Of a stretch of 64,000 bases of DNA, positions 4,461 to 63,737 are shown piece by piece (position 1 is the first letter of the stretch; each line of letters begins with the position of its first letter). The notes under the pieces were generated by a model. The model had not been told where the DNA came from. It saw only the letters and a list, made by a program, of their open reading frames with translations, and did not search any database. The translations under genes were made by a program, and so were the position numbers. The stretch lies in NCBI GenBank assembly GCA_963693365.1, contig CAVNZM010000012.1:7568001-7632000 (forward strand). Reading direction: 5' to 3'. The stretch comes from Amoebidium appalachense (taxonomy: Eukaryota > Protista > Ichthyosporea).

Positions 4461-15225
<10,765 letters not shown>

Positions 15226-17932: not shown

Positions 17933-18468
17933 CTTTGCTGTCTGTAAAAAATAGTCCACTGAAAGGACCAGCAAGGGAAAACCTGTGGATGTTTTGCTTA
18001 GAGATTTTTCAATATAGGTGCCACCGTTTTCTTTAAACTTGAATCTTTTCAAAGGGGGGCAGAAAAAAAAAATGAAGCTGGCAAAGAAGCTGCACTGAGC
18101 TCGATCCTGAATCGCCAGATCGGTTGTAATCGGCAACTCGGCCTACGATTGCTAGGTTCATTCGCTGTAGATCATGTATAGTGCTTGCCGCATACCTGTC
18201 TGCGGGCAATTTGATTGGCAGATACAGCTTCACGTTCGCCACATATTTCGATTCGAACAGGCAACGGCACATGCACTTGTACAAGTCTTTCCGGGATTAC
18301 ATGTTTTTTTGTTTTTAAGGGGTTTTTTGTTTTACGAGTTCCCGTCGTTTCCAAACAACGCCGCCTGGTATGGTGTTGTAATAGAAGCTAGTAAAGTATT
18401 GGGTCAGAACATATATAGGGTGATTCGTTCTGTACACGCTCGTAATGTTGATGTAGCAGAACCACAAA
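17933..18468. promoter_or_regulatory. Probable bidirectional promoter/5'-UTR region
   Basis: About 540 bp free of microsatellites between the divergent starts of the small protein (-) and NUS1 (+). Confidence 0.4.
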
Positions 18469-18976
18469 ATGGATGGTCTAGCAAAGAGAATCCTCGGCTT
18501 TGTCCTTCTCTCCTTGTTTCACATGTATGACAACGTTAGGAGATTATGGGATTATTGGTGCGAACGCGCCGTGTGGAGTTTTGTGTGGGCTTCTGGTGCA
18601 GCTGACCCAACACATCAACACATAAAAGATACAACACGACCATTCGGCAAGCTTCCAAAGCACATGGGTATCATTTTAGCTTCTGATGACGAAGCAGCCA
18701 AATTCCCTGCAGAAGATCTTGCGCGCGTGGTGACGTGGTGCATGGTTCACGACGTTCAATGTCTTTCAATTTATGATTGCAGTGGTATGATCCCTCCTCC
18801 CCCCCTCCAGCAGTTGTCCCAAGGCATGTGCAAGCGCTTGGAGATCGACAAAAAGACGCAGTACAAAACACAAACACGCATGCATTCGGGGACACAGATA
18901 GATACACATACACACACACACACGCACACGCACACGCACACACGCACACACGCACACACACACATCACACACAGTT

Positions 18977-19019
<43 letters not shown>

Positions 19020-19035
19020 GCCACACGCATACACA

Positions 19036-19069
<34 letters not shown>

Positions 19070-19463
19070 GACACAAAGGCAAGAACACACACACATGCGG
19101 ATTCGCCTGGATGCTCGCATACCAGATGAGGGGTTGCAGGTGTGTACGCAAGTCATCATAGTTACATACACATACTTTGGTTTACGAATATGCAGGGAGA
19201 AGTTCGGCAACCGGTGTACAGACACACTTCCACCCATACATGGCACACACACAAGCCCTGTAACCGGACATGCACATTCAATTATGCAAAAACAGACTTG
19301 TTTAGAAGACGAATCACACTCTCTGAGCAAAATGACACAACAAACAAACATCAGAGCAGTGGCTGGTATAACCCAGGTATATTGCTACCCCTGTGTATGG
19401 CTATGCTGGATAGGATACCCACCCATAGACCTGCCCGCCTCAGCCCCTCTCCTAATCCCCCCC

Positions 19464-26512: not shown

Positions 26513-37514
<11,002 letters not shown>

Positions 37515-41245: not shown

Positions 41246-42668
41246 ATGTGTATGCGTGTTATGAAGAGAGGGCGGGGGGGGGGGGGGGGGAGGGGGGGGA
41301 GGGGGGCGGCGGGGCAAAGAGCACGTCTTGTGTCGTGTTCCGTGCCGTGTCTTCCTTGACATAATGGTGTTCTTCGGTGCTTTCCATGTGTTCTGCTTCC
41401 AACTGGCAATGCACCTAACTGCTCAAACCCATCTTGTGTGGACAGTTATGTGTACGCACACGGGGCCTCACGCTGCCTCTATCAGTGTGTGCTTCTGTTG
41501 TGGGTTGAAAAGGGGATTGCCCGTGCGTCGTGCCATTTTGTTTTGAGATGTGTTTGTTGTGAGCGTCTGGATATCTTTATATGGGGTTGTGCCGGTCCTG
41601 TTGGTGGCAGCAGTGGTGTGGATGGTTGGGGGGAGTAGAGGGGGAGGGGGGGATGGTGGAGGTAGAAGGGGGGGAGGGGGGAGGGGGGAGGGTTGTGAAA
41701 GGGGAGCTTGTAGGAGGGGGCTGGTGTGTGTGGTGCACGGAGATCAAGGGGGGTGGGATTGAAGGGGATAGGGGGAGAGTAGCAAGTTTTAGGTTTGAAT
41801 GTATATCTGTGGGTTGGCCGGGGGGTTGGAGGGGCGGGAGGGGGAGAGGGATATTAAGGTTACGATCGGTTCCATGGCTGACCATTTTTGGAACTTGATT
41901 GTTTCATTTTGCCTCTTTTTCTCTCTCGTAGTTTGTGCTTAACCGGGAGCGAGGGGAGGGGGAAAAGTGGGGTAGAGGGGGGCGTTTGGGGGAGAGGGGG
42001 GGGGGGGGGGGGGGGGGGGAGGGGGGTGTCAGTGCAGCTCGTAGATTTATGCCCCGGGTTGAGTGTGGGTCAGTTGAGGACCCGGGAGGAGTGGGGGTGG
42101 GGGGGGAAAAGAGAGAGAGAGAAAGGGGGGGGGGGGGGGGGGGGAGGGGGGGGTATCATGTTCGTATATTTCCACACCACCTTGAAGATTCGACCCTAAT
42201 ATTACACGTTTGCATTTACGGCAAGAATAGAGCCACGACCACACCCGTAGCCTCCCCGCCCCCCCCCCCCCCTCCCCCCCCCCCCCCCCCCCCCCCCCTT
42301 AGAAGCCCGGCTTATGGTCTACTTCTCTGCTTGTTTTCCTTGTTTTTGTCTGCTTGCAGTTTTTGTAGGCTCTGTTTTCTTAGATTGCTGCTCCTTGAAC
42401 AGCCCTGCTAGTCTTTGGCCAAGACGGGTGGACTCGCCTATTGCTGTTGAAACAAAGTATGGGTCGGGAACCACGCGTGAGAGGTTAAAGAGTCGAAACC
42501 CATGCTTTTGTGGAGGCATAGGAACCCCCATGATGATGGGCTCTGTTCAAGTGTCTTCTGCCTGCACCCTTAATTTGTTTGATTTTGGATTTCCCACTTT
42601 TTTGACGTTTTGTTGTTGCTCTTTGTTGTCTGCTCCATATTTCCAACCCTCTAACACATACATCACCT

Positions 42669-42700
<32 letters not shown>

Positions 42701-44389
42701 CCTCCCCCTCCCCCTCCCCCTCTCTCCCCCACCTATGATGCATACTCATTGTGTGATCTGCATCGTGCTGTCCGTCATGAATGTGTTCTTCTTCGTACTC
42801 TCTTAACACATCCCTCCTCCCCGCCCCCCGTCTCTCAGGAGCACACACACACCCGCGCGCGCGCGCAGACACACACGCACACACACACAGAAGATAAACA
42901 CAAGAGATAAGCTAGGAAAGATACTCGGGTGGTGATCTGTTTCACACCCTGGGACATACGGGTCATTCATTTTATCTATCTTCCACCCCCTCCTCTTCTC
43001 CCCCCCCTCTCCCTCCCCCCCCCCCCCCCCCCTCTCCGCCTCCCTCCCTCCCTCTGCCTCCGGGGTCCTTCCCCCCCATGCCCCAATGATCCGGGGTAAC
43101 ATCTAATGAAAATTTGTGCTTTCTATAACACTGTTTCTTCCACACTGCTAACCCAAAACCAAACACCCACAGACTAACCTCCCCATATTCAAGAACAAAG
43201 AGTTTGTATGCCGCCGTCGTTTCAGCGACTTTGAGTGGCTAAAATTGGAGCTCGAACGTGATGGGAAGATTGTTGTTCCCCAGCTTCCAAGCAAAGCCAT
43301 TTCCAAGCAGATGAGTTTTTGGGCCAAGGATGATGGTATTTTCGATGAGGCGTTTGTTGAGCGCAGAATGCACGCACTGGAGGAATTCATTAACAAGTGA
43401 GTCTTCAAGTTCCCCCCTGTCCCCCCCCCCCCCCCCCCTCCCCCCCCCCCCCCCCTTCTCCCCCCACTACCAACACCACCACCACCATCGCACACACACA
43501 CAGACACAGACACAGACACAGACACACACACACACACACACACACATACATGCGCGCACATACAACACATGCACCTCCCTCTCGCATTCTCTCTCTTACG
43601 TACCACCAGCTCCCGTCCCCTCTCCCCCCAATCCTATGCCTGAGAGAGGTGGGGTCTTTTTTTTTGGGGGGGGGGGGGGGGGGGGAGGGGGGAGGGGGGG
43701 GGAACGTACCACCATCCCCCAACCCCCACCCCGAGAGAGAGGTCGGGAGGGGGAGAATGGAGGCAGGTGGGTCACTGTGTTGGTGTGGGTGGTGGTTTTT
43801 GTGGGTGTTTGCCAACGGTGTTGGCGTGGGTGGGTGGGGGAGGGGGGAATGGGAGATGAAAGGGAGGGAGGAGCTCTGCAAGCATTACTGAAGGTAGGGA
43901 CGCCAAGTGTTGGCCGTGAATTTTGTGGGTATAGAATTACTGTGGTTATAGTCTCTTAACCGGGGCCAAACAATAGTAGCATGGGTTTTTGTTTCCCCTG
44001 ACCCGGAAACCCGCTTGCTGACAAGGTGAATGCTTCTGAATATCAGCTGATGGTTACGTAAAGGGGGGCTTGCAGACGCACATGTTCCTGTGCTGGCATC
44101 AAATCCGCTCCACGGTTGCTATGGTGTCAACCATTAGTATCACACTATTCCGGCGGTTCTCTGATTCTACCATCAACCGATACGCCTCCTACCACAACAG
44201 ACATAGTTCGCCCACACAGCATATGCATTTTCCTACACTCGCCTAAGCATTACAGCCATCATTCTTACATGCCTCTCTCTTCTCAGGATTGCCGGTCACC
44301 CGCTTGCCCAGAATGAAAAGTGTTTGCACATGTTCTTGAACGAAAAGATGATCAACAAGAACTACACCCCCGGAAAGGTCCGGAACTGA
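40517..44389 (+). CDS. SNX3: Sorting nexin 3/12 (PX-only SNX), 3 exons
   Basis: Exons 40517-40672, 43173-43396 and 44287-44389. [84 protein letters not shown]. Confidence 0.96.
42401..42668 (+). ncRNA. Hammerhead element, subfamily B, with a canonical GUC cleavage triplet
   Basis: AAAGTATGGG-T-C^GGG (42454-42468), AGAGTC-GAAA-CCCATGCTTT (42489-42508), CCC-aTGATGA-TG-GGCTCT (42527-42544). Has a C3 lesion here; the 55326 copy has CTGATGA. Same 5' hairpin as subfamily A and ends at poly-C. Confidence 0.72.
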
Positions 44390-46213: not shown

Positions 46214-47715
46214 TTAATAACCAGTGCAGTTTCTGAGCTCTTCGAGCAGCGCAGACTTACTAAGGAAGCTACGTTTGTGTGTGCTTGTATTTTCTTTCTC
46301 GGGCACATCCTTTTCCGTAGGCTTGTGCACATCATGCTGAGTCACTGTGGCTACACCAACACTAGCGCTTGGGCGATGTCTGCGAAGAAGTTGTTTCAGT
46401 TGTGGAGAAATATAAGGGGAAACAGCCGAAGTGTTCTTTGGGCGCATCTTGTTAATGATTTCTCTCAGCGGGTCTTTCGTTTTCGTTTCCTTTCCCTTCT
46501 TCCCGGAGCTGCCACGACCCCGTTTCTTCCTTGGAAAGTTCATTTGGGGGCCTTCGTGATTTGGGGAATCAGCGGCAAAGATTTCCTCTTGACTGTCACG
46601 GTTTGCGCCGGGTTTTTCCTCAGAAAAAGCTGTTTCTTGTTTTCTTTCCTGGGTCGTTATTCTGGGCATGTTAAGTGACTCACTCTGGTGTTCAGGTTCG
46701 CCCGGTTCGTCCTGCACTGTTGGAAGGAGGGTAAGCGGATCCATCTCCCCAGCAGCATGGCATAAGCAATGTCAGGATCGAGTTCAGGCCCAACGAGAAC
46801 ATCAGCCGTTTCTGGAGGCACATCGGCACCAAAAGGCTCTAAGGGGATTGTGGTGTTCGTTACAGGATCGAAAACTCGCTGGTGATGGAAGATGTGAACG
46901 GCAGCGAGCGCGCATGTTTCGTAACCCCTCGATACTGTTTCTGGACGAGTTTTCCTAAGTTGGTCCAAAGCTCCAGCCAAACCCCCGAACGTGTTAATTA
47001 GGTTGAATGCCGTTTTGGCTGCGACACCCGCTATCCCCGGACAGTAATCGCACCCAGCAAGGACACACATCTCTACAAACTGCTTGGCGCTCCATCCACG
47101 AAACTCATTCTCCAGCTTGTCACGATTGTATACCTCGACGTGCCCATCCTTGTCAAGTTTGTATAGAATAGTGCCACATCCGTATGCGATGAGGTCCGAA
47201 TCCTCCGTGATGATGGCATCTATCACACCCGTTCGTTCCAAATAGGCGAGCTGAGCATCCGACTCGTATGGAGCCACAAGGAAGGGAACACGGAGGTCAT
47301 TACACAGATTCTGCAGTTTCACAACCTCTGATCGTGGGATGCTGATGCCGCTCTGTGCGTGTTTCCAAGCCGCTTTGGTGTCTCCTGCCTCGAGGCTCTC
47401 TCGGCACTTCTCTCGTGCTTTCTCGCGTGTTTTCTTTCTTTCTTTGTCAGTCTCGCTTTTGGCGGGTAAGGGCCGACCGTCGAAGACAAGAAGGGGCTTG
47501 ATATCGTTTTCCAAGAGAAGTTCCAAACGTCGTCTGCAGAAACCTTTCAGCTTTTCTGTGGGCTCTCCTGTTAATAGCTCCAAAGCACACGAATAAGCAC
47601 CTTTGTAGAGCCATCCCATAGCATCAACCCCAAGCGTCTTGCCACTAAAATCAGAGATGTTACCATTCTTGTCAAGGGTTTCTGGAAGGAGGGGGAGCAG
47701 GCCCTTTATCCCCAT
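46214..47715 (-). pseudogene. EXO1: Intronless exonuclease 1 (XPG/RAD2 family) with a 1-nt frameshift
   Basis: MGIKGLLPLL, GVDAMGWLYKGAYSCA, VFDGRPLPAK, VAPYESDAQLAYL, ITEDSDLIAYG, MCVLAGCDY, FHHQRVFDP. Adding one base at 46757/46756 restores IAYAIAAGEMDPLTL and joins ORF 46214-46744. Either a pseudogene or an assembly indel. Confidence 0.8.
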
Positions 47716-47887
47716 TATGTTGAGCCTAAGGAAGTGCAAGTGAAAGCTCCATGCAGGTAAACAGGAAGACGAACAGTCCTACTATGGGTAATGTGCCGGT
47801 TTACAAGAACCAAATAATGGCCAACTTGGGAAATTTAAAAACGGTTTCCTTCCAACCCAAGTGATTAACGAGCCACAGGTATTATCT

Positions 47888-50060
47888 TAGACTCTGATAA
47901 GTATTTCTCGGAACTGTTTAAAGATAGGACCCCCGCTCAGAAACCTATTGTGTGGCCTGTAGACCCATCTATCCCCATAGAATCGATCCTCCCCTTTTTC
48001 AGTCCCGATGCCATATGGTCTGTGATATCTAGTTATAGCTCTAGTAAGTCTTGTGGACCTGATGGACTCCCTGCTGGGTTTCTTAAAATCCTTGTTCCCT
48101 CCTACCCACAAAAGGAAAGTGATCGTGCTATTAAACCTGATCTTACTATCATGTTAAGCTCTCTCTTTTCTTGGTGTGTTGAATGTGGACATGTCCCGTC
48201 ATCTTGGTTAGATACCTTAGTGATCCCCATAGTTAAGAAGGACTCTGAGGGCCCCATATCATCCTTTCGCCCCATTACACTAACCCAGGTTGTTCGTAGA
48301 TTCTTTGAAGCTTGCTTACTTAGGTTATTTGCACATCACCCTAGGTTTCAATCTATTCTTCACATACACCCATGCCAATCCGCTTTTCGTAAAAACAATT
48401 CATGTTATGTTCAAATAATGGCACTGCACGATTCTATGCAAGTTGGTGCACAATATGTTGGCTTTATTGATTGGAAAACTGCTTACGATTCTGTCTCCCC
48501 TGGTCTCCTATGGGAAAAGCTTGCTGCACGGGGTGTACCACACTGCATTGGTGTTCTGTTAGAAGCACTCTTGTCTCAAACCTATGGTAGAGCTGTGGTT
48601 AATGGGCATCTTTCATATGGTTTTGCTCGTACTAGAGGTCTCTTGCAGGGTTCATTGCTTAGCCCCTTTTTGTTTAACCTATTTATAGATGATTTGGCTG
48701 TCAAGATTTACGCCGAAAACGATGACCCTATTAATAACTTTCCGCCTGCACTTCTCTATGCTGATGATCTGTCCCTCCTTGCCCGTACCCCTAGACGCCT
48801 GCAAAGATTGTTCGATGTAGTGTCAGAGTGGTGCAAGGCAAACCTTATGATCCTTAACATAGACAAATGTGGTGTTCTTGTACCTGATATAGCTAACAAT
48901 TTACACACATTTACATTATCATCTAAACCTGTACCTATAGTTCCAGAATACAAATATCTTGGTGTTCCGGTTGATTCTGTTGGTGTTATGTTTCCCCATA
49001 TGGTCGAAAAGAGGGTAGAGTTGGCTCGTAAGCGGTTAGCTTTCTTCTCGGCTAATATTTTTAAAGACACACCCCTCCATCCTTCTATTAGACTTACATT
49101 TATTCGCACTTTTGTCTTCCCGGCATGTGAATATGGTTTACCCCTTCTCGCCGCTTGGATCAAGAAAGAGAGAACTAGAGCGCTTAAACCCTTGGCAAAT
49201 TTCCTTGAAGCAGAAGTTGCCTCCTTTCTATCTAACAACTGTTGTAAACCTGGGCCTGTAACGCTCTCGATATATGGTCTGGTCCCAATAGCTGCTAGAG
49301 TATCCTATCTCGCGCTGAAATTCAATAAGCACATAAGCCGCTTAAAGAAGTATTTGCCCTCCCACCCTCTCTTCTCTATCCGACCTGTCCCCTCCTCACC
49401 TCTCCCCTCTTTCCTCCCCTCTCTCTCCCCTTCTCCCCTGGGCACAAATACAAATAAACCCCGCAATAGTGTGTGTGTGACTTTGGACTGCCACTTACTT
49501 ATTAAACATGTACACAATCACAAGATAATCACGCAATATAACAAATGGAAAAAGATACCACACGACACTAGACCCGATGAAAGCATACACCTTGAAAAAC
49601 TAAGCCTTATGTCTCGTTTTATATATACTGACCGCCTCAACCATATTGCCAAATATGGCACTCGCAAGTGTATAACACCTAAATACATATTACCTTCCTG
49701 TAGAACTGGTCTTTCTCTAGCTGATGGTATTATTGATCAATTACCACGCTTTTACTGTACACGTGCTATACAGTGGAGATCTAATAAGTATAAGGTGGCA
49801 TCATTTGCATGCCCAAACAACACACACACACACCAGTTTAACCGGTCATGTATCGCCAAATGTAGTTTGATAGACCACATAATACCGCAACACACACACG
49901 TCACATTCACAACAGACACCCAGAAAGATAGCCTACCTGTAAATTACAACATCCTTGATTTTATACTAAACACGCGTAACTACGACCTGTTTATTAGGTG
50001 TATTGATTGGCTTGAGAAACACATCACTACAAAATTATAGCGCACGCGCACACACACACA

Positions 50061-52007: not shown

Positions 52008-53043
52008 AGCGCAAGCGTAAGCGTACACAGAAAGACGCGCGCGCGCACACACACACACACACACATACGCGCACGCGCACACGCAAACGCCTACCCACAC
52101 TTGGATATCTTCTACACGACTGCCACAAGCGGACACTCCAAAAATCCCCCTTCCCCCTCCCTTCCCCTCCCTCCCCCCCCCACCACCTCGCCCCTTTCCA
52201 CTATATACAATACACACAAACACACATGCGATCCCCTGTGCCCCCCCCCCCCCCCCCCCCCCCCTCTCACCCCCCACCCCCTTCCCCCCCCCCCCCGTCC
52301 CCCCCCCCCCCACCCCCATCCCTTCACCCATCGTCGGGCAGGTACACACACGATGATGGTAAGAAGCAAAATGCAAAGAGTTACACGTGGAGCATCTTTG
52401 CTTCCCCTTCCACCCCCTCCCTCCCCCCCCGCCCCACACACGCACAAAAAAAGTAATGAAATAAAATAAAATAGTAAATAAAATAGTAAATAAACCACTG
52501 CTCCCCAACACTTTTCCCTCAGGGACATGCACTTGAGACCAATAGACACGTAAAGGAGTGAGCGGGGGAGGAAGAAAGAAAAGGCAGAGAAAGGCAGATA
52601 TCGAGAGTTGATTACCAAAAGAGTTTTGGTAGGGAGAGAGAGATCGTGGAGACAAGTCGTGCATACGTCGTTCAGAAGCTACCATAGAAGGGGGGTGTTT
52701 TTTTCTGATGAAAGATCACATTCCCTCTACTCCTCGTAAATCACTCTCCCCACAAATACCGGATATCCCCCCACTGCCGAGGCTGGGGTGTACACCCTGA
52801 GCTAAGTGCGTACTAGTGGTTGGGTCTGGTAACGGTGTATTAGCCTAGCTTATTGCACCTGTAGCATCTTTAATAGGGTACAGTCATGCTGTGTGGAAGA
52901 CGGTAGTTTCTATGAGGACCCTTGGGGGTCCTTCTGGGAACAAAACGGGATAACATAAAATAAAATAAAAAAACGGAAACACCCAATATACTCAACACTC
53001 ATCCACCCCACTTCTATGCCACAGGTATCTGGCAGGGCCAAAA

Positions 53044-54690
53044 ATGGAACCGTTGTTCCGCACTCTATTTTTGGCGCTTTTCGCCGCCCGTGCAACTGTG
53101 GCTGCCACATCCATGTACCAAACCGGCCGGGGGGAATACCAAGTAATCAGCGAGTTGCGAGATATGCCCCAGGGAGCCAATGAAAACGCTTCGTTGGCCA
53201 CCCACGTGAACGTGTTCTATCCAATGGGGGATGGCCCGTTCCCGCTGCTGGCGTTCGGGCACGGGGTTGGGAGAGGTGCGTGAGATTTCCTTCTTATTCT
53301 TTTTTTCTTCCTTTTTTTAATTTCTTTTTTTTGTTTGTTTGCTTGTTTGTTTGTTTGTTTGTTGTTTGTTTGTTACATTCTCTCCCATGCTCATTTTTGT
53401 TCCGTTTTTGAGTCCTTTCACTCACCATCAGCTGTAGATAAAAGTTTCTGGCACCGTTCATGCTTTGTTGTCACCCCGGGGAAGGATGGGGTGTGTTGTG
53501 AGTGAGTGTGGGGGATGGGGAAGGTGTGTGGGGGGGGGGGGGGGGGGAGGAGGGGGGCAGGGGCATTGAGAGATCAGTGGCTGTGTGTTCATACACGTGT
53601 ACATGTTATTCTCTCATGGGCGATCTTGCACACGTCTTACTCTCCCCCCACCACCCCTCTCCTGCTCCACCCTCCCTACCCCCTTCCTCACCCCCTTCTC
53701 TTCTCACACACACCCACCCGTGTGTTGATTTGAGTTCCCTGTTATGTGGTTTTGTTGATGTGTTTTGCTTCGCTCATTTTCCTACCATCTAATGCATATC
53801 CCCCTCCTTACCCCCCCCCCCCATCCCCTCCCAGAAAAAAAAAAATGCACACACAAACATGCAAGCCCCCCCCCCCAAAAGAAAATACATATATGTATAC
53901 AAACAGCACAGACACACACATACACTCACACACCACTCACAAACACATACACACACACCACACATCACAGACACCCCCACACCCCCATACTCGCACACAT
54001 TCCCCCCTCCTCCTCCCCCCCCCCCCCCCCCCAAACACCTACTCATCCGCCCACCAGCAAACCCATTCCCCCCCCCCCCCCCCCCCCCCCAACACACACA
54101 CAGGTGGTGATGCTCTAGAGCGTGACTATGGCGAAATGCTCGAATCCATTGCTTCGTTCGGGTTTGTGGTTGTTGCAACTCAGGCGTGCCCCACCAATTA
54201 CTGCCCCAATTTTGCGGACGAGATCTTAAAGTCGATCGAACTTGCGCGAGATCTGACTCAGGCTGATGATATGGTTTTTGACCGGGTTTTCTTAAAGAAC
54301 GTGGGTGTGTTTGGTCATTCGATGGGTGGCACTGCCGCTGTAACCAAGTATGGTTACTTCCCCCGCCCTCCCCCCCATTCCACCCCACAAACACACACAC
54401 ACACACACCCAAACACACACGCACACGCAGAAAAAAAACAAAAAAAAATTGAAATAAAAGGGGCGAAAAAAACCCAGCAGCAAAAGTGTTTGTGACGACG
54501 TGTTTCCTCTCTCCCTCCATCCCCCTCGTGTCTGTTCTCACACGGCAGTCGTGGTCGTTCGGAGGCGCGGGAGAGAGAGGGGGAGGGAGGGGAAGGGGGG
54601 GGAGGGGGGGGGGGAGGGAGGTGAGTGAGGGGGCTGGGGAAGGGGGGAGGGAGGGCGGTGAGGGAGGGAGGAGGTGAGGGAGGAAGGGAG

Positions 54691-54732
<42 letters not shown>

Positions 54733-55937
54733 GGCTGGATGAGATGAGGGGACAGAGTGAAGAAAGGGGAAAAAGGAAATGAAGTAAGTTTGTAGTATGG
54801 TAGGTGTGCAAAGTGAATGGGGGAAGAGAGATAAAAGATCGCCCCTCTCCCAAACCCCCCTCCCCCCTCCCCCCTCTTCCTCCCCCCAACCCCCCGCCCT
54901 CTCCCCCGCCCTCCTCCCTCCCCTCCCCCCCCCCCCCCCCCCCAAAAAAAAAAAAATCAAAAAAAATCACCCCTTATCTCAAGACTTTTGCCCCAGACTC
55001 GAATATTCAATCTAGCATGTGTATGGTGCACCCTTTTGTCTAGTCGATCGACACTGCGTCCCCCCCCCCCCCCCCCCTTCTGTCCGACCACCAGCAACCA
55101 CAGCTGGCACATTTCTTTTTTTAGTGTCACGTCACTCTGTCACCGGGTTATGTTACCATTTTCCCGTGTTCTGTTCTTTACTTATTCTTTACTTAGCTGT
55201 CGCCTCTTCTTTTCTCCCTTTTTTCCTCCCCCATTGAACACATCTATTCCATTATCTTCTCCCCGCTTTCCTTTCTTTGTTTTTCCACTTTTCCCTTCTT
55301 TTTTGCCCACAACCCAGGAACCCCCCTGATGATGGGCTCTGTTCAAGTGTCTTCTGCCTGCACGCTTAAATTGTTTGATTTTGGATTTCTCACTTTTGTG
55401 ACGTTTTGTTGCTCTTTGTTGTCTCTTCCATATTTCCAACCCTCCAACGCATACATCCCCCCCCCCCCCCCCACCACCACCACCACCCCCCCCCCCCTTC
55501 CCCCCCAGCACCTTCTGATGTATATACCCCCTCCACCCCCAGCCTACGTGTATCAGACCAGTATTCCATTCTTGCCTCAGCCCCCCTCTTTCCCTGTGTG
55601 GATGGACTGTCTGACTCCGTAAACCTGCCTGTCATGTATATCACTGGTAAATCTTCCCCATCCCTCCCCCCCTCACACGACACACACACCCCTCCCCCTT
55701 CCCCTATCCCTGAAGAAAAAGATGTGTATGTTTCTGTGTGTGTGGTGGTGGTGGTGGTGGTGGTGGGGTTGAGGGAGGGGGGGTTGGGAGGGCGGAGGGG
55801 GGAGAAGAAAGGAAACCCCACCCCTCCTCACCCCTCTCTGCACTTATCTCTTTTTTCTGGATTTTGTGTGTTTGTGGTATTTTGTCTTTTGTCTTTTGAT
55901 GTCTTTTTTTCAATAACTCCAACCATAGAATACATAG

Positions 55938-55977
<40 letters not shown>

Positions 55978-57624
55978 ATGTATCCTCTCTTGCTAGCACT
56001 ATTTGTTTCTAATTCTCATTTTGTAGTTTTGGAAATGCTTTTCTACCGTCTTTGCCCCTTCCCCCCCCCCCCCCCCCCCCCCCCCCCACACACACACGCT
56101 CATTCTTCACACCCACCTGTATGCAGTTGCTATCACTTGCACTTGCATTTGCAAATACCCCCCCCCCCCCCCCTTTCCCCCCCTTCACCCCTTTCCCATT
56201 TCTCCCCCTCCGTTCCACCCCCCCGTCTACCCAGGTGTTGTTCCAGTTAAGTCAAACAACCTCTATCTGGATTGTCTTCTCTTGAGTCCTCTGCTATCTA
56301 AGCATATTTCGTGTCCCTCTAGAATATATCCTAGAATATATCCTAGAATATTTCCTAGAATATTTCCTCGAATATTTCCTAGAATAATTCCGCCTATGTC
56401 GTGCCCATCTATAGGTTGAATCTCGCAAAAGAAATCAAGGTGACGGCTTCTAAGAGCCTGGGCAAGCAAAAGGTGATAGGGTGGGGAGAGGGGGAGGGGA
56501 AAGGGAGGGGGAGAGGGAGGGGGGGGGGGGGGGGCAAGGAGGGGAGGGGGGGGGGGGGAGGGGGGGGTGCCAACGGAATGGGGATGGTGTGTGATGCCTT
56601 GTAGAACTGATACTTTTGGAACCATTAGCCAAACTCAACCTCCCCCCTCCCCCCCTCCGTCCTCCTCCCCCCCAAAACACACACACACACACACACACAC
56701 ATTCATCCTCACCTTCCAACCCCTCACGAGGTCAATTACTCCCTCATATGTGAGCACAATCACACACGCCCCACTGACACCCCAATTTACCTTCCTCCCT
56801 CTCTGTTCTCCCCCCCCCCCCCCCCTCCTACCCTGCCTCCCCCCCCCCCCCCTCTCCACCCCAGCCCGCCCCCACCCGCTCACCTGACCACACACCGACA
56901 CCACCCCTTCCCACCCTATCATACACACACACACACACACACATGCCCCTGTGCCTCCCCTCCCCTCCCCCCCCCCTCCCCCCCCCCTCCCCCGATTCCT
57001 CTGAGGATATTTCTGCACACATACTACCTGTTGCTGATGTTGCATACTTAATACGATTGATTGTGCATGTGCCCTGCACTTTATTTCTCACGGTGTAGTT
57101 CTGTGTTGTACCATGTACCCAATTCTAAAACCCCCCCGCCCTCCTTTTACCCCAACAGGAGAAGCAGATCGCATATGCAACCACGACTCAGTCTACCAAT
57201 TCTTCACCCGCAACACCCCATCGCCCGTCGCGTCCTTCCTCAACATGAAACACACAGACCACAACGGCCCCGTTGTAAAATCACAAACAATGCCCCCATG
57301 GGTAGGCGCAGTAGCCGCGTTTTTCAAGTGCCATTTGGTGCGAAGCGAGAGCGCGTGCGAATATGTTTATGGGCTGGAGGATAACATATGCGATTTGGAT
57401 AAGTTGTTGACTGTTACTTCGGGTTGTCAGACTAGAGGGACACCTGCTCCCCCCGGTATGTGTCATGCCCCCCCCCCCCCCCTCCCTCCCCCCCCCCCCC
57501 CCCCCCCCCGGCTCTTCCCCCTTGACTCTTCCCCCACGTCCTGTCTCTCTCTCTCTCTCTCTCTCTCTCCCCCCCCCCCCCGCCTACCCACCCACCCACA
57601 CACCCAGACCACCTACCCTCCTCC

Positions 57625-60573: not shown

Positions 60574-61920
60574 GGGGTCGCCGTCTGTGATACCAGCACT
60601 CACACACTGGGCCGGTGGCGCCGTTTTAGTCAGAGTAACTGCTAATTCGTGTGCACCCCACGGCCGGCTGCAGATTTTCAGGCGTGCGCGGCCGTCGAAG
60701 TGTCAGTAGCTATAATATTAGTAGCCATGAGTTGTATACGTTGTCCCCAGAATTGCACGCATGTTTTTTTCCACGGTGTGTGTACGGTACTGTCACACGG
60801 TGTTTGTGCGTGTATGTGTGTGTGTGTGTGTGTGAACGTTCTGTTGACTGTTCAGCCATGGCCACGAATCGGTTCACATGTATCTGTGAAACGATTGGCT
60901 GTTTCAGTCAGCTGTTTTCTTATTGGCTTACATAAATCTCCCGTGGTTCCCCCAGCTGATCATGAGTCATTGCCATTCAGCGGCTGGTGATTTGGATTAT
61001 TCACAGAAGATTTTTATACGTAGTTTTTCTGCAAGGCATCTCCCCTTTAAATTTTCTCATTTCCCCTCCCTTTTTCCATGAAAAAAAGGGGATATTCGGG
61101 TAACATGCATGCTGTCCCCGACCGCCGGTCAAGGAATCTGTGGCATGCGCCCCCACATACAACATCTTTAGATTTTCCGCAATCAAGAAATAATATACGG
61201 CCTCGGCCCACCCCGGTCCCGCCGTCCCATGGCCAGGGGGCAGGTGGTGTAGCGCATGTTTCCATTCTGCAGCTCGCTGCTTAGCATAAAGGTAAAATAG
61301 CAGTTAATTCACAACATTGCAAGAAATAACAGAGTTTCTCGGTGGTCATTTAGTGTCACTAGAGTGTCTAAATGAATGTCAATGGATCATGAAAAAATTT
61401 ATGAGACCCATTTTACTGCAACATTTCAAAACCCTGTAAATTTGGGTAATGGAGGTTAATTTGCCTGAAGTGCCGAACCGTTGCTGGAAACACCACAGTC
61501 TTGTGTGCGCTGTTCAGCCTTGTTGTAGCAGAACTTACGTTGCTGGATGGCTGCTCTTAGGTTGCATTACAGTTACGTATACATACAATAATTAAATAAA
61601 TCTACATTTACAGACACTAGTAACATATGTGGGTGGAGTGGAAGTAGCTAGCACCTGGCCACCTTTCTTTCTTTCTAAATTCTGCCGACAAAAAATAGGC
61701 GCACAAATAACTCATAAAGCCCGTACGGTGGCCTGCATGCACGAGCAGGAAATCGTTCGGGCACGGTGGCTTGGGCCCTACAAACAGGCATCAAACTAAT
61801 AGCACATGTTATAATGACAGGCATACGGTAACCGGCTTTTTTTTTCCAGCTTTCCAGGCACCCACGCGCACAGACACAGCCTCAGCACATCACTAAACCG
61901 ATCCTGGAAAAACCGTTATT

Positions 61921-63737
61921 ATGTCCGTTTTGAATAAGCAGCGAAGCCCATCACCGGGCTTCCTGCGACCCGGCCACCTCCGGTCGTTGATCCTCAATGC
62001 AACTCTTCTAGCCTGTGTAGTTTCTTTCTTCTTTGGCCACGGCCCATTTTTGTGGGTGATGAATGTTTTCGCCTACCAAATACCAAGTTTTCCTGGTGTT
62101 GATTTGCTACGAAGCACACCACCTTTGCAAAACACAATAACAACGCTAACACAATTACCACACACAGTTCAGTCACCATTCCAATCGGGTGTGAGTAGGA
62201 GCACAGACCCTGCTTCTGTCACCACACCACCCTTTTCTGAAACAACAATTTTCACACGCACGACACCACCACCACCACCACCAACCAAAGCACCATCACA
62301 ACCCGGTGTTTACTCTCAGACGGTGCCAGCGCAAAACACATCCACACCAACAACAAAACTGGGTTCCTCCTCCGTTTCGAGTAAACAGAGCAAATATGCC
62401 ATCACTATTTCCACTACTATTCCACACTCTCCATCCCAACTACCACCTCCGAATGATACCTCGACTGACGGAAGGGTCGAGATATCCAAGGAAAATTCCG
62501 TTTATGGAAAATCTACGTGCCGATATTTGTATGGGACAGGTGAAAATATCTGCAATATGATTGATCGTGTGGGTAAGATCGCTTTAGCTACAAATACATC
62601 TGGGGCGAGCGAATACAACAAGGGTGAATGGGTGCGAAATTGCAATGCGGAAATCCTATCCCGCGTATATCCAAATAACACGGTCAGCCCGGTTGAAGCA
62701 TGGAGATATGCATACAATATATCCAGAAACGAAACTCGGTATGCGCTTTTCACTGAGGGAGGGGTAAGATATCATTTCCCATGTTTCAATGAGAGCGACA
62801 AGACGCGATCTGCGCAAAAGGCCGACACGTTGAATTTCTATTGGCAGCCGGATTCGTGCGGGCTTCATTCATTTGACGCTCAAAACATGCAAAGAATATT
62901 TGCAAACCACAACATTTTGTTTGTGGGTGATTCACTTTTGGGCCAACTAGCACGCAGTATCCGCGAACTTTCGGGCCTGTCTGAGTATATCGAAAGGCCG
63001 AATATCAACAGTGCGGGGGGATCCTTTATCGCCAAACGTGGAGATTCGACGATGCGATTCATCAAATCGTTCACTCTCATAAACCACAGAAATCTGCAAG
63101 TCATGCCCCCAGACATCTACGAGTTATGCGCGAGCAAGGAACCAAGGCTGTTGCGAGATTTTCCCGGGGGGGGAACCAAACGGAAATTGAAGCGGAAAAT
63201 GGTCGAATCAGGCAGCTTCAAAAGCGAAGGAATGATTACTGCCCACCACGGCACGACCACAAGCATTTATTGAGCCACGCCAGCTGGGCGCGAAATTTGA
63301 CCGGGGTCGATGTGTTAATTTTCAACACCGGGCACCATTGGAACAGGGAGGGGTTTGATAACTACAAGAAGATGGTGCATAATGTTGTGAAATATCTCGC
63401 TGAAAATTTCAGCGGGAAAGTGGTTTTTATGTCAACCAGCCCCGGCCATGTAGAGTGTATGAAGTATAGGGAGCCAACTGCGAAACCAATACCAAACCCT
63501 TCTCTTTTGGATGTATACCATTGGGAGGGACCGAAGGAGCACGAGAGCATATGGGGTCGTGAATTTGCACAGACCCCGCTTGTGTCAAATTTCACGTATT
63601 TTCATGTTGACGGTATGAGTTTGCTTAGGCCGGATGGTCACCCGACGGAACAAGACTGTTTGCATTATTGTGTCCCGGGGGTGCCTGACACGTGGTCACA
63701 GGCACTGTATAATTTGCTGTTGCAGTTTTTGGCATGA
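61921..63737 (+). CDS. Intronless TBL/PC-esterase family (polysaccharide O-acetyltransferase-like) type II membrane protein, frameshift probably at a G8 run
   Basis: N-terminal TM, Ser/Thr/Pro stalk, WQPDSCGLHSFD..ILFVGDSL, DVLIFNTGHHW, RPDGHP..DCLHYCVPGVPDTWSQAL. One extra G in the run at 63166-63173 fuses the two ORFs. Confidence 0.85.

Follow-up and report, generated by a model that had tools for sequence, protein, structure and literature searches.

A repeat of Amoebidium appalachense with hammerhead blocks in a rearranged order: a probable four-piece ribozyme at the presumed 3' end of a Naiad/Chlamys-group Penelope-like element

Introduction

Why does a short dispersed repeat of the ichthyosporean Amoebidium appalachense carry the strands of a hammerhead ribozyme in an order that belongs to none of types I, II and III, how would these strands build the second stem of the fold, and what kind of element do they end? 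The question arises in a stretch of 64,000 nucleotides (the window, in whose coordinates all positions are given), where an initial annotation had proposed a natural, non-circularly permuted hammerhead at 42401. The A. appalachense assembly comprises 202 Mb, about half of it transposable elements (PMC11244446).

Hammerheads with the block order S-G-C have been published as type SGC (HRIMA-1 and SGC variants; Eckert et al. 2023, PMC10085705); five natural examples were shown to cleave, all members came from metatranscriptomes, and the type was described as absent from the genomes of known organisms (PMC10085705). Among Penelope-like retroelements, the Naiad and most Chlamys elements are described as being without canonical hammerheads, some of them keeping an 'HHR_core' or 'half_core'. 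The preferred targets are (TA)n for the Naiads, which occur in animals, and (C)n and (CA)n for the Chlamys elements (PMC8557442).

Here we describe a repeat of 270-370 nt that contains hammerhead blocks ordered S-G-C. It probably forms the 3' terminus of a retroelement of the Penelope-like type, non-autonomous and belonging to the Naiad/Chlamys group, with a hammerhead that is predicted to assemble from four pieces (II'-S-G-C) and to self-cleave behind its NUH triplet. A broader proposition, to which we give slightly less than an even chance, is that a four-piece hammerhead without the A9-G10.1 link is active and is the overlooked 3' ribozyme of Penelope-like elements with an N-terminal endonuclease, older than animals and present in tens of thousands of Amoebidium copies in (C)n.

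Results

The window is eukaryotic, with about 50% G+C and abundant (C)n and (CA)n tracts. The queried exon of a protein kinase A-like gene (Table 1) was 100% identical to protein P0001, and a PC-esterase frame matched P0007 at 100%; both are EukProt accessions labelled Amoebidium parasiticum, which makes the host an Amoebidium, an ichthyosporean and not an animal. An XPG/FEN1-family nuclease frame lies head to head with a non-LTR reverse transcriptase frame, with 90 nt between the two; intronless in an intron-rich genome, the nuclease could be viral or belong to the non-LTR element. A Pfam scan of 152 window frames (5 + 147; 156 frames of at least 60 aa passed the filter) gave no GIY-YIG domain and no second reverse transcriptase. 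An autonomous partner of the Naiad/Chlamys type would encode an N-terminal GIY-YIG domain with a telomerase-like reverse transcriptase, so this negative result counts against a Penelope-like assignment.

Table 1. Features of the window, grouped as ribozyme parts, repeat copies and host or other frames.
Feature	Position	Strand	Remarks
P0 5' strand	42394..42405	+	pairs with 42543-42551 (9 bp) and, through CCC, with 42538-42540
Hairpin H1	42407..42429	+	within the UGCU-hairpin-GGU motif
Upstream stem II strand II'	42431..42435	+	pairs with 42490-42494
P4 5' strand	42437..42444	+	pairs with 42516-42522; joins far ends of stems I and II
Block S	42454..42468	+	stem III strand, U16.1 at 42464, C17 at 42465, stem I strand
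Predicted cut, 42401 copy	after 42465	+	after C17
Linker, 20 nt	42469..42488	+	4-bp stem, 42469-42472 with 42483-42486
Block G	42489..42508	+	stem II strand, GAAA 42495-42498, stem III strand
P4 3' strand	42516..42522	+	
Block C	42527..42536	+	stem I strand and core 42530-42536; A replaces C3 at 42530
UG and P0 3' strand	42537..42551	+	42539-42544 is the alternative downstream stem II strand
II' in 12k copy	12269-12264	-	
Predicted cut, 12k copy	between 12233 and 12232	-	
42401 copy	42300..42666	+	U-rich 5' part, ribozyme domain, 3' tail; from sequence, BLAST and nhmmer
12k copy, best preserved	12050..12322	-	core 12167-12161 and 12201-12198 intact; GUU site
29772 copy, second subfamily	29761..30027	+	block G decayed
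30173 copy, 12k subfamily	30168..30459	+	changes in GAAA and core
42401-subfamily fragment, decayed	30547..30630	+	similarity begins about 4 nt past the predicted cut
42401-subfamily copy, decayed	27860..27980	+	
42401-subfamily partial copy	55303..55456	+	C3 intact
3' fragment	5731..5836	-	ends in C tract
3' fragment, weak	7277..7325	-	E 0.035
3' fragment	10804..10846	-	ends in C tract
3' fragment, weak	42750..42811	+	E 0.032
3' half, decayed	57000..57130	+	block C remnant
Protein kinase A-like gene	15225-4464	-	nine exons, which match protein P0001
NUS1-like exon	18457-19158	+	likeness by eye only
PX-domain exon	43152-43397	+	
XPG/FEN1-family nuclease frame	46660-47778	-	373 aa, unbroken
Non-LTR reverse transcriptase frame	47869-50037	+	723 aa; followed by (CA)n and poly(A)
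Chlorophyllase/PETase-like hydrolase exons	52969-54492	+	scores under curated cut-offs
PC-esterase gene	61897-63734	+	

Twelve copies or fragments of the repeat were found in the window, ten by nhmmer (E <0.05; five of the ten matches were seeds, and the best match on the reversed window had an E of 7.3) and two more by BLAST (27936 and 57031). Four are near full length, two are internally decayed and six consist of the 3' part only. The 42401 copy, whose 5' boundary is approximate, sits between two C tracts; three same-strand copies follow one another at 29761-30630 with C tracts between them, an arrangement that may or may not correspond to the pseudo-LTRs which partial tandem copies of Naiad/Chlamys elements form; and at least 7 C were present within about 40 nt of the 3' end for seven of the eight ends checked, as against 7.5% of random places. 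Insertion into microsatellites, a common 3' end and 5' truncation (six 3'-anchored fragments) thus occur together, and such 3' ends in C runs with 5' truncation fit a non-autonomous element of the Naiad/Chlamys type. The copies are dispersed and ordered S-G-C, and not tandem units with a type I hammerhead as in a non-LTR retrozyme. Four copies or fragments lie inside introns of the protein kinase A-like gene, all on its coding strand. The fragment at 30547-30630, a single case, stands behind a (CA)n tract and could be a copy of the 3' cleavage product.

The family extends well beyond the window. At 80% likeness, the 12k copy was matched by 7,036 contigs of DNA run X1 and 8,274 of DNA run X3, and by 186 and 10 contigs of X14 and X19, runs that are RNA only by our guess. 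Scaled from 12 per 64 kb, in a window that may be atypical, the 202 Mb would hold roughly 38,000 pieces. Loose ends in the runs reveal another subfamily, in which block G is intact and to which the 29772 copy belongs. Upstream of 12315 and 29761, contigs of X3, X14 and X19 continue with common sequence that looks like the 3' end of the element itself and is followed by a short C run. In one X19 contig of 898 nt, block C lies close to the end. The element may therefore also exist in tandem or in a longer form.

The three hammerhead strands that the initial annotation had listed in the order A-B-C are indeed present, as S-G-C, so that the circular order of types I, II and III (CGS, GSC and SCG) is not found here. 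Its stem III was recovered in the 42401 copy (42454-42464 with 42498-42508, 11 bp including one G-U) and in the minus-strand 12k copy (12242-12234 with 12198-12190, 9 bp), as were the cleavage triplets (GUC with H17 at 42465; GUU with H17 at 12233), a stem I of 3 bp in the 42401 copy and 4 bp in the 12k copy, and an N7 position that varies between copies. The 12k copy has the full core, with CUGAnGA, GAAA and an NUH triplet with A15.1-U16.1, although by the NUH rules its GUU is a weak site. The core is incomplete in the 42401 copy, whose annotated C3 lesion is real (A at 42530), in the 30173 copy, where it is altered, and in the 29772 copy, which had been offered as a further hammerhead example; the GAAA block of the latter is gone, and it keeps an outer helix of the P4 type. 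C3 pairs with G8 in the hammerhead core (PMC11300833, PMC3088659), so the 42401 copy is likely dead; the C3>A change together with predicted misfolding indicates that it is probably inactive. Its sister copy at 55303-55456, the one copy compared with it at this position, has C at C3, so the A may be private to the 42401 copy.

Among the 7,036 contigs of X1 and the 8,274 of X3, no core position showed a difference in 3 or more of 100, and the 17 differences from the 12k copy listed for the run contigs, at 15 places, all lie outside the core. A descriptor of the S-G-C layout, written after the copies had been seen, matched the 12k copy alone when CUGAnGA was required to be intact; C3 had to be relaxed for it to match the 42401 copy. 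Across 200 shuffled windows (500-nt blocks), any S-G-C match arose in nine and one with a good upstream stem II in none, so that the layout is not a product of chance. An Rfam scan of the window returned no hammerhead among 103 matches with E up to 1, all of which fell below gathering scores and on simple repeats.

Around this core we identified a wider fold. The annotated outer helix, kept with unrelated sequence, was found again as P4 in four copies, directly after II' and before the stem I strand; the enclosing helix P0, the hairpin H1 and the short stem within the linker are additions to the initial annotation. P0 shows two-sided changes in three of eight pairs between copies. In an alignment (A1) of the four near-full copies, which as related sequences can be supportive only, a 45-pair model had 89.8% of its cells paired and 8 of its 45 pairs changed on both sides, a number reached by 3 of 500 shuffles, with 0-3 in slid controls; two-sided changes were found in stems I, III and II, the last with an upstream partner. 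Single-sequence folding, which is blind to pseudoknots, gave mean pair probabilities in the 12k copy of 0.98 for P0, 0.96 for H1, 0.76 for P4 and 0.79 for stem III; freeing the stem I and II strands costs 6.3 kcal/mol in this copy, where block C can form a hairpin of its own, and 13.6 kcal/mol in the 42401 copy, whose best fold destroys the frame. Folding z-scores from a crude shuffle were -2.2 (12k copy) and -2.7 (42401 copy), and -0.6 and -0.1 for two damaged copies.

The loop region of H1 (42415-42421; 12285-12279) is self-complementary in all four copies, its palindrome surviving a double change from UGAUCA to UGGCCA, and the linker loops are palindromic as well; the H1 and linker loops possibly serve as a dimer contact. 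The Naiad H1 loops examined are not palindromic.

The initial annotation had paired block G with GGCUCU downstream of the core and had read the UG after A9 as a constant insertion. On that reading the repeat would be a type-SGC hammerhead of the usual three blocks into which two nucleotides, UG, are inserted, and the upstream strand would compete or inhibit. Such a downstream stem can form 5-6 bp (6 bp in both the 12k and 42401 copies), and on cells paired over the four copies it reaches 91.7%, the upstream model 87.5%; moreover, one- or two-nucleotide insertions after CUGAnGA are allowed by Eckert et al. (PMC10085705), and Penelope-like hammerheads usually have a base between positions 9 and 10.1 (PMC4209133). 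An unbroken block C can thus be drawn with the 2-nt insertion, but none of the six downstream pairs changes on both sides, and three of the six are G-U in the best copy. The covariation claimed in the initial annotation is thus seen in stems I and III and in stem II with II', but not in the downstream stem II. Against block G, II' shows a two-sided change in one of six pairs among the four window copies and more in the run contigs.

Since the two models nearly tie on the window copies, it is the run variants and the Naiad relatives that decide between them. II' and block G read GACCCU/GGGGUC in the 12k copy and GACUC/GAGUC in the 42401 copy, a C-G to U-A change between them, and the II' of the 29772 copy, GACCCA, stands opposite a surviving UGG. 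Two loose ends of run X19, likely neighbouring contigs, supply the pair GACCUA/UAGGUC. The A and G variants at 12264 are complemented by UGGGUC and CGGGUC, which occur in loose ends of X3 and X1; of these run variants, only the X19 pair is plausibly in phase. No variant of the downstream strand appeared among the listed run-contig differences. Duplex energies favour II' over the downstream strand in three of four variants: -8.7 vs -5.1 kcal/mol in the 12k copy, -8.7 vs -5.3 in a further variant and -6.7 vs -2.2 in the X19 variant, where only 4 bp remain downstream; in the 42401 copy the downstream strand is stronger by 1 kcal/mol (-6.0 vs -5.0 for II').

The Naiad relatives point the same way. 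In the Naiad consensus file of PMC8557442 (File S5), all 19 CUGAUGA places were judged by eye, cores with other N7 bases being covered where TG follows. Twelve of the 19 fall in 3' tails, and eight of these twelve (Beroe, three Acropora, two Octopus and two further) show by eye the order P0-H1-II'-P4-S-G-P4-C-P0, with an upstream stem II of 6 bp that has one mismatch in one tail. In the Acropora tails and the two further ones, P0 follows directly after A9 and the downstream stem II strand is missing, which argues against the three-block reading. Altogether the upstream strand is better supported: stem II is most likely formed with the fourth strand II' and not with the downstream GGCUCU, the UG is more probably the start of P0 (its G could also compete for C11.1), and the chain would be open between A9 and G10.1. 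We regard the three-block hammerhead as unlikely.

Apart from layout, the Amoebidium repeat shares with the Beroe and Acropora Naiad tails a UGCU-hairpin-GGU motif directly before II', which argues for common descent, and in Naiad tails as in the repeat the ribozyme lies about 100-200 nt from the 3' end. Fold and motif are thus common to a ctenophore, to corals and to an ichthyosporean, hence the suggestion that they are older than animals. There are also differences, as Naiads have animal hosts and (TA)n targets, whereas the repeat has an ichthyosporean host, a (C)n end and no coding part in view. The remaining four of the twelve tails comprise two nematode tails of three-block type CSG and two that could not be parsed; nematode and spider Naiad tails, as three-block type CSG, are unlike the repeat. 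By eye, the tails of Naiad-3_Nbra, Naiad_Hcon and Naiad_Smim look like three-block type-CSG hammerheads, a type of which PMC10085705 had only two examples. Chlamys elements resemble the repeat in their (C)n insertion and frequent 5' truncation, and Chlamys-1 and -2 of Chlamydomonas, classed as (C)n-inserting, share its AACCCC 3' end. However, none of the CUGAUGA places in the Chlamys file fits the four-piece layout, two Chlamydomonas Chlamys tails examined in full have no such core, and the Chara and spike-moss Chlamys families differ from the repeat in carrying type I hammerheads.

Discussion

From block order, paired changes and relatives we infer a fold, a mechanism and a role in transposition for the four-piece hammerhead. 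P0, H1, P4 and stem III would build a nested frame, within which the tip loop of stem III would turn back to the foot of P4 and pair there with block C (stem I) on one side and II' (stem II) on the other. A9 would continue into P0 rather than into stem II, with the P0/H1 junction holding the gap shut, so that the molecule would amount to a type SGC opened at A9-G10.1 and rejoined. Cleavage after H17 would cut long or tandem transcripts to unit length, a trimming proposed by analogy with other Penelope-like hammerheads (PMC4209133), and the RNA would be copied from its 3' end into C-rich microsatellites, through target-primed reverse transcription, by the borrowed enzyme of an autonomous element. 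The cut halves would stay clamped by P0, P4 and stem III; held by more than 20 base pairs, they may be able to rejoin, which could explain the four copies that span the cut site.

Strong cutting is not what the best copy would lead us to expect, given its GUU site, its 4-bp stem I, its block C hairpin and its sense position in intron 2 of the protein kinase A-like gene. That four copies span the cut and the best copy lies in sense in a host intron suggests that cutting is slow, reversible or conditional. The same facts, together with the self-complementary H1 loop and the many Penelope-like hammerheads that cut poorly and as dimers (PMC4209133), also suit a real, selected fold that does not cut autonomously, being instead a structure for recognition or packaging by the reverse transcriptase, or one whose cutting requires dimerisation or a protein. 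We hold this to be about as improbable as the three-block hammerhead: the core bases are all kept across thousands of contigs, as selection for chemistry predicts, distant Naiad tails keep the core with an NUH site, and there are known cases of hammerheads in introns that cleave in vitro (PMC3088659). Less probable still is an origin unrelated to Penelope-like elements, either as a SINE-like repeat mobilised by a non-LTR element such as that encoded at 47869-50037, or as a viroid-like RNA that became integrated together with its SGC ribozyme, viroid-like RNAs being the published source of that type (PMC10085705). The neighbouring non-LTR element ends in poly(A) and has no sequence in common with the repeat, at the 3' end or elsewhere, whereas the repeat ends in C runs and shares UGCU-hairpin-GGU-II' with Naiad tails. 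Pattern searches, moreover, gave no family member in viruses (77 matches to a 16-letter block C pattern, in none of which block G or H1 preceded it; 0 to H1) or metagenomes (0 matches to H1; 7 to a 20-letter block C pattern, all judged by eye to lack the fold).

The four-piece hammerhead is related to published molecules without coinciding with any of them. Like type SGC, it has the order S-G-C, the full core and distal ends of stems I and II connected by a short link, and the type-SGC helix 'I' that joins the other distal ends corresponds to P4; unlike type SGC, in which block C carries its own stem II strand, it most likely uses an upstream fourth strand, and it adds P0 and H1, which would close the gap after A9, and a high-copy nuclear setting. 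Thus the natural, non-circularly permuted hammerhead fold of the initial annotation stands, as a permutation already in print, while its assignments of stem II and UG do not. In the crystal structure of the pseudoknot hammerhead of Zhan et al. 2024 (PMC11300833), a helix made with another strand takes the place of helix II and the core still cuts, but A9-G10.1 is continuous, G10.1-C11.1 closes the loop and the blocks are not rearranged. Non-LTR retrozymes and minimal type I hammerheads (PMC4209133; 10.64898/2026.07.22.740005) are likewise short, non-coding and dependent on Penelope-like elements, but have the circular order, stand in tandem and belong to animals, whereas the repeat is dispersed, pseudoknotted and four-piece.

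The four-piece layout is not described in the available parts of 10.64898/2026.07.22.740005 or PMC13725137, and the literature examined contained no natural hammerhead broken at A9-G10.1 and shown to cut. A literature search that covered little subscription material returned one type-SGC paper, three for Naiad with hammerhead and, for Amoebidium with hammerhead, only an irrelevant one; Penelope, ribozyme and SINE are absent from the main text of the Amoebidium genome paper, and Penelope, Naiad, Chlamys and ribozyme from two of its supplementary files. The chemistry and the block order are therefore known, the four-piece build is unreported, and the host is outside those listed for these elements; a non-animal host and a C-tract family are what is newly added.

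If the preferred reading is true, non-circularly permuted hammerheads would no longer be confined to viroid-like RNAs but would also include a nuclear repeat of high copy number, and the rule assumed in PMC10085705, that block C is uninterruptible, would be broken. It would explain the apparent absence of hammerheads from Naiad elements and would place a Penelope-like family beyond the hosts given in PMC8557442, one in which a ribozyme like that of Naiads goes together with (C)n targeting like that of Chlamys elements. The role of the ribozyme in Penelope-like transposition would then be testable in an organism that grows axenically.
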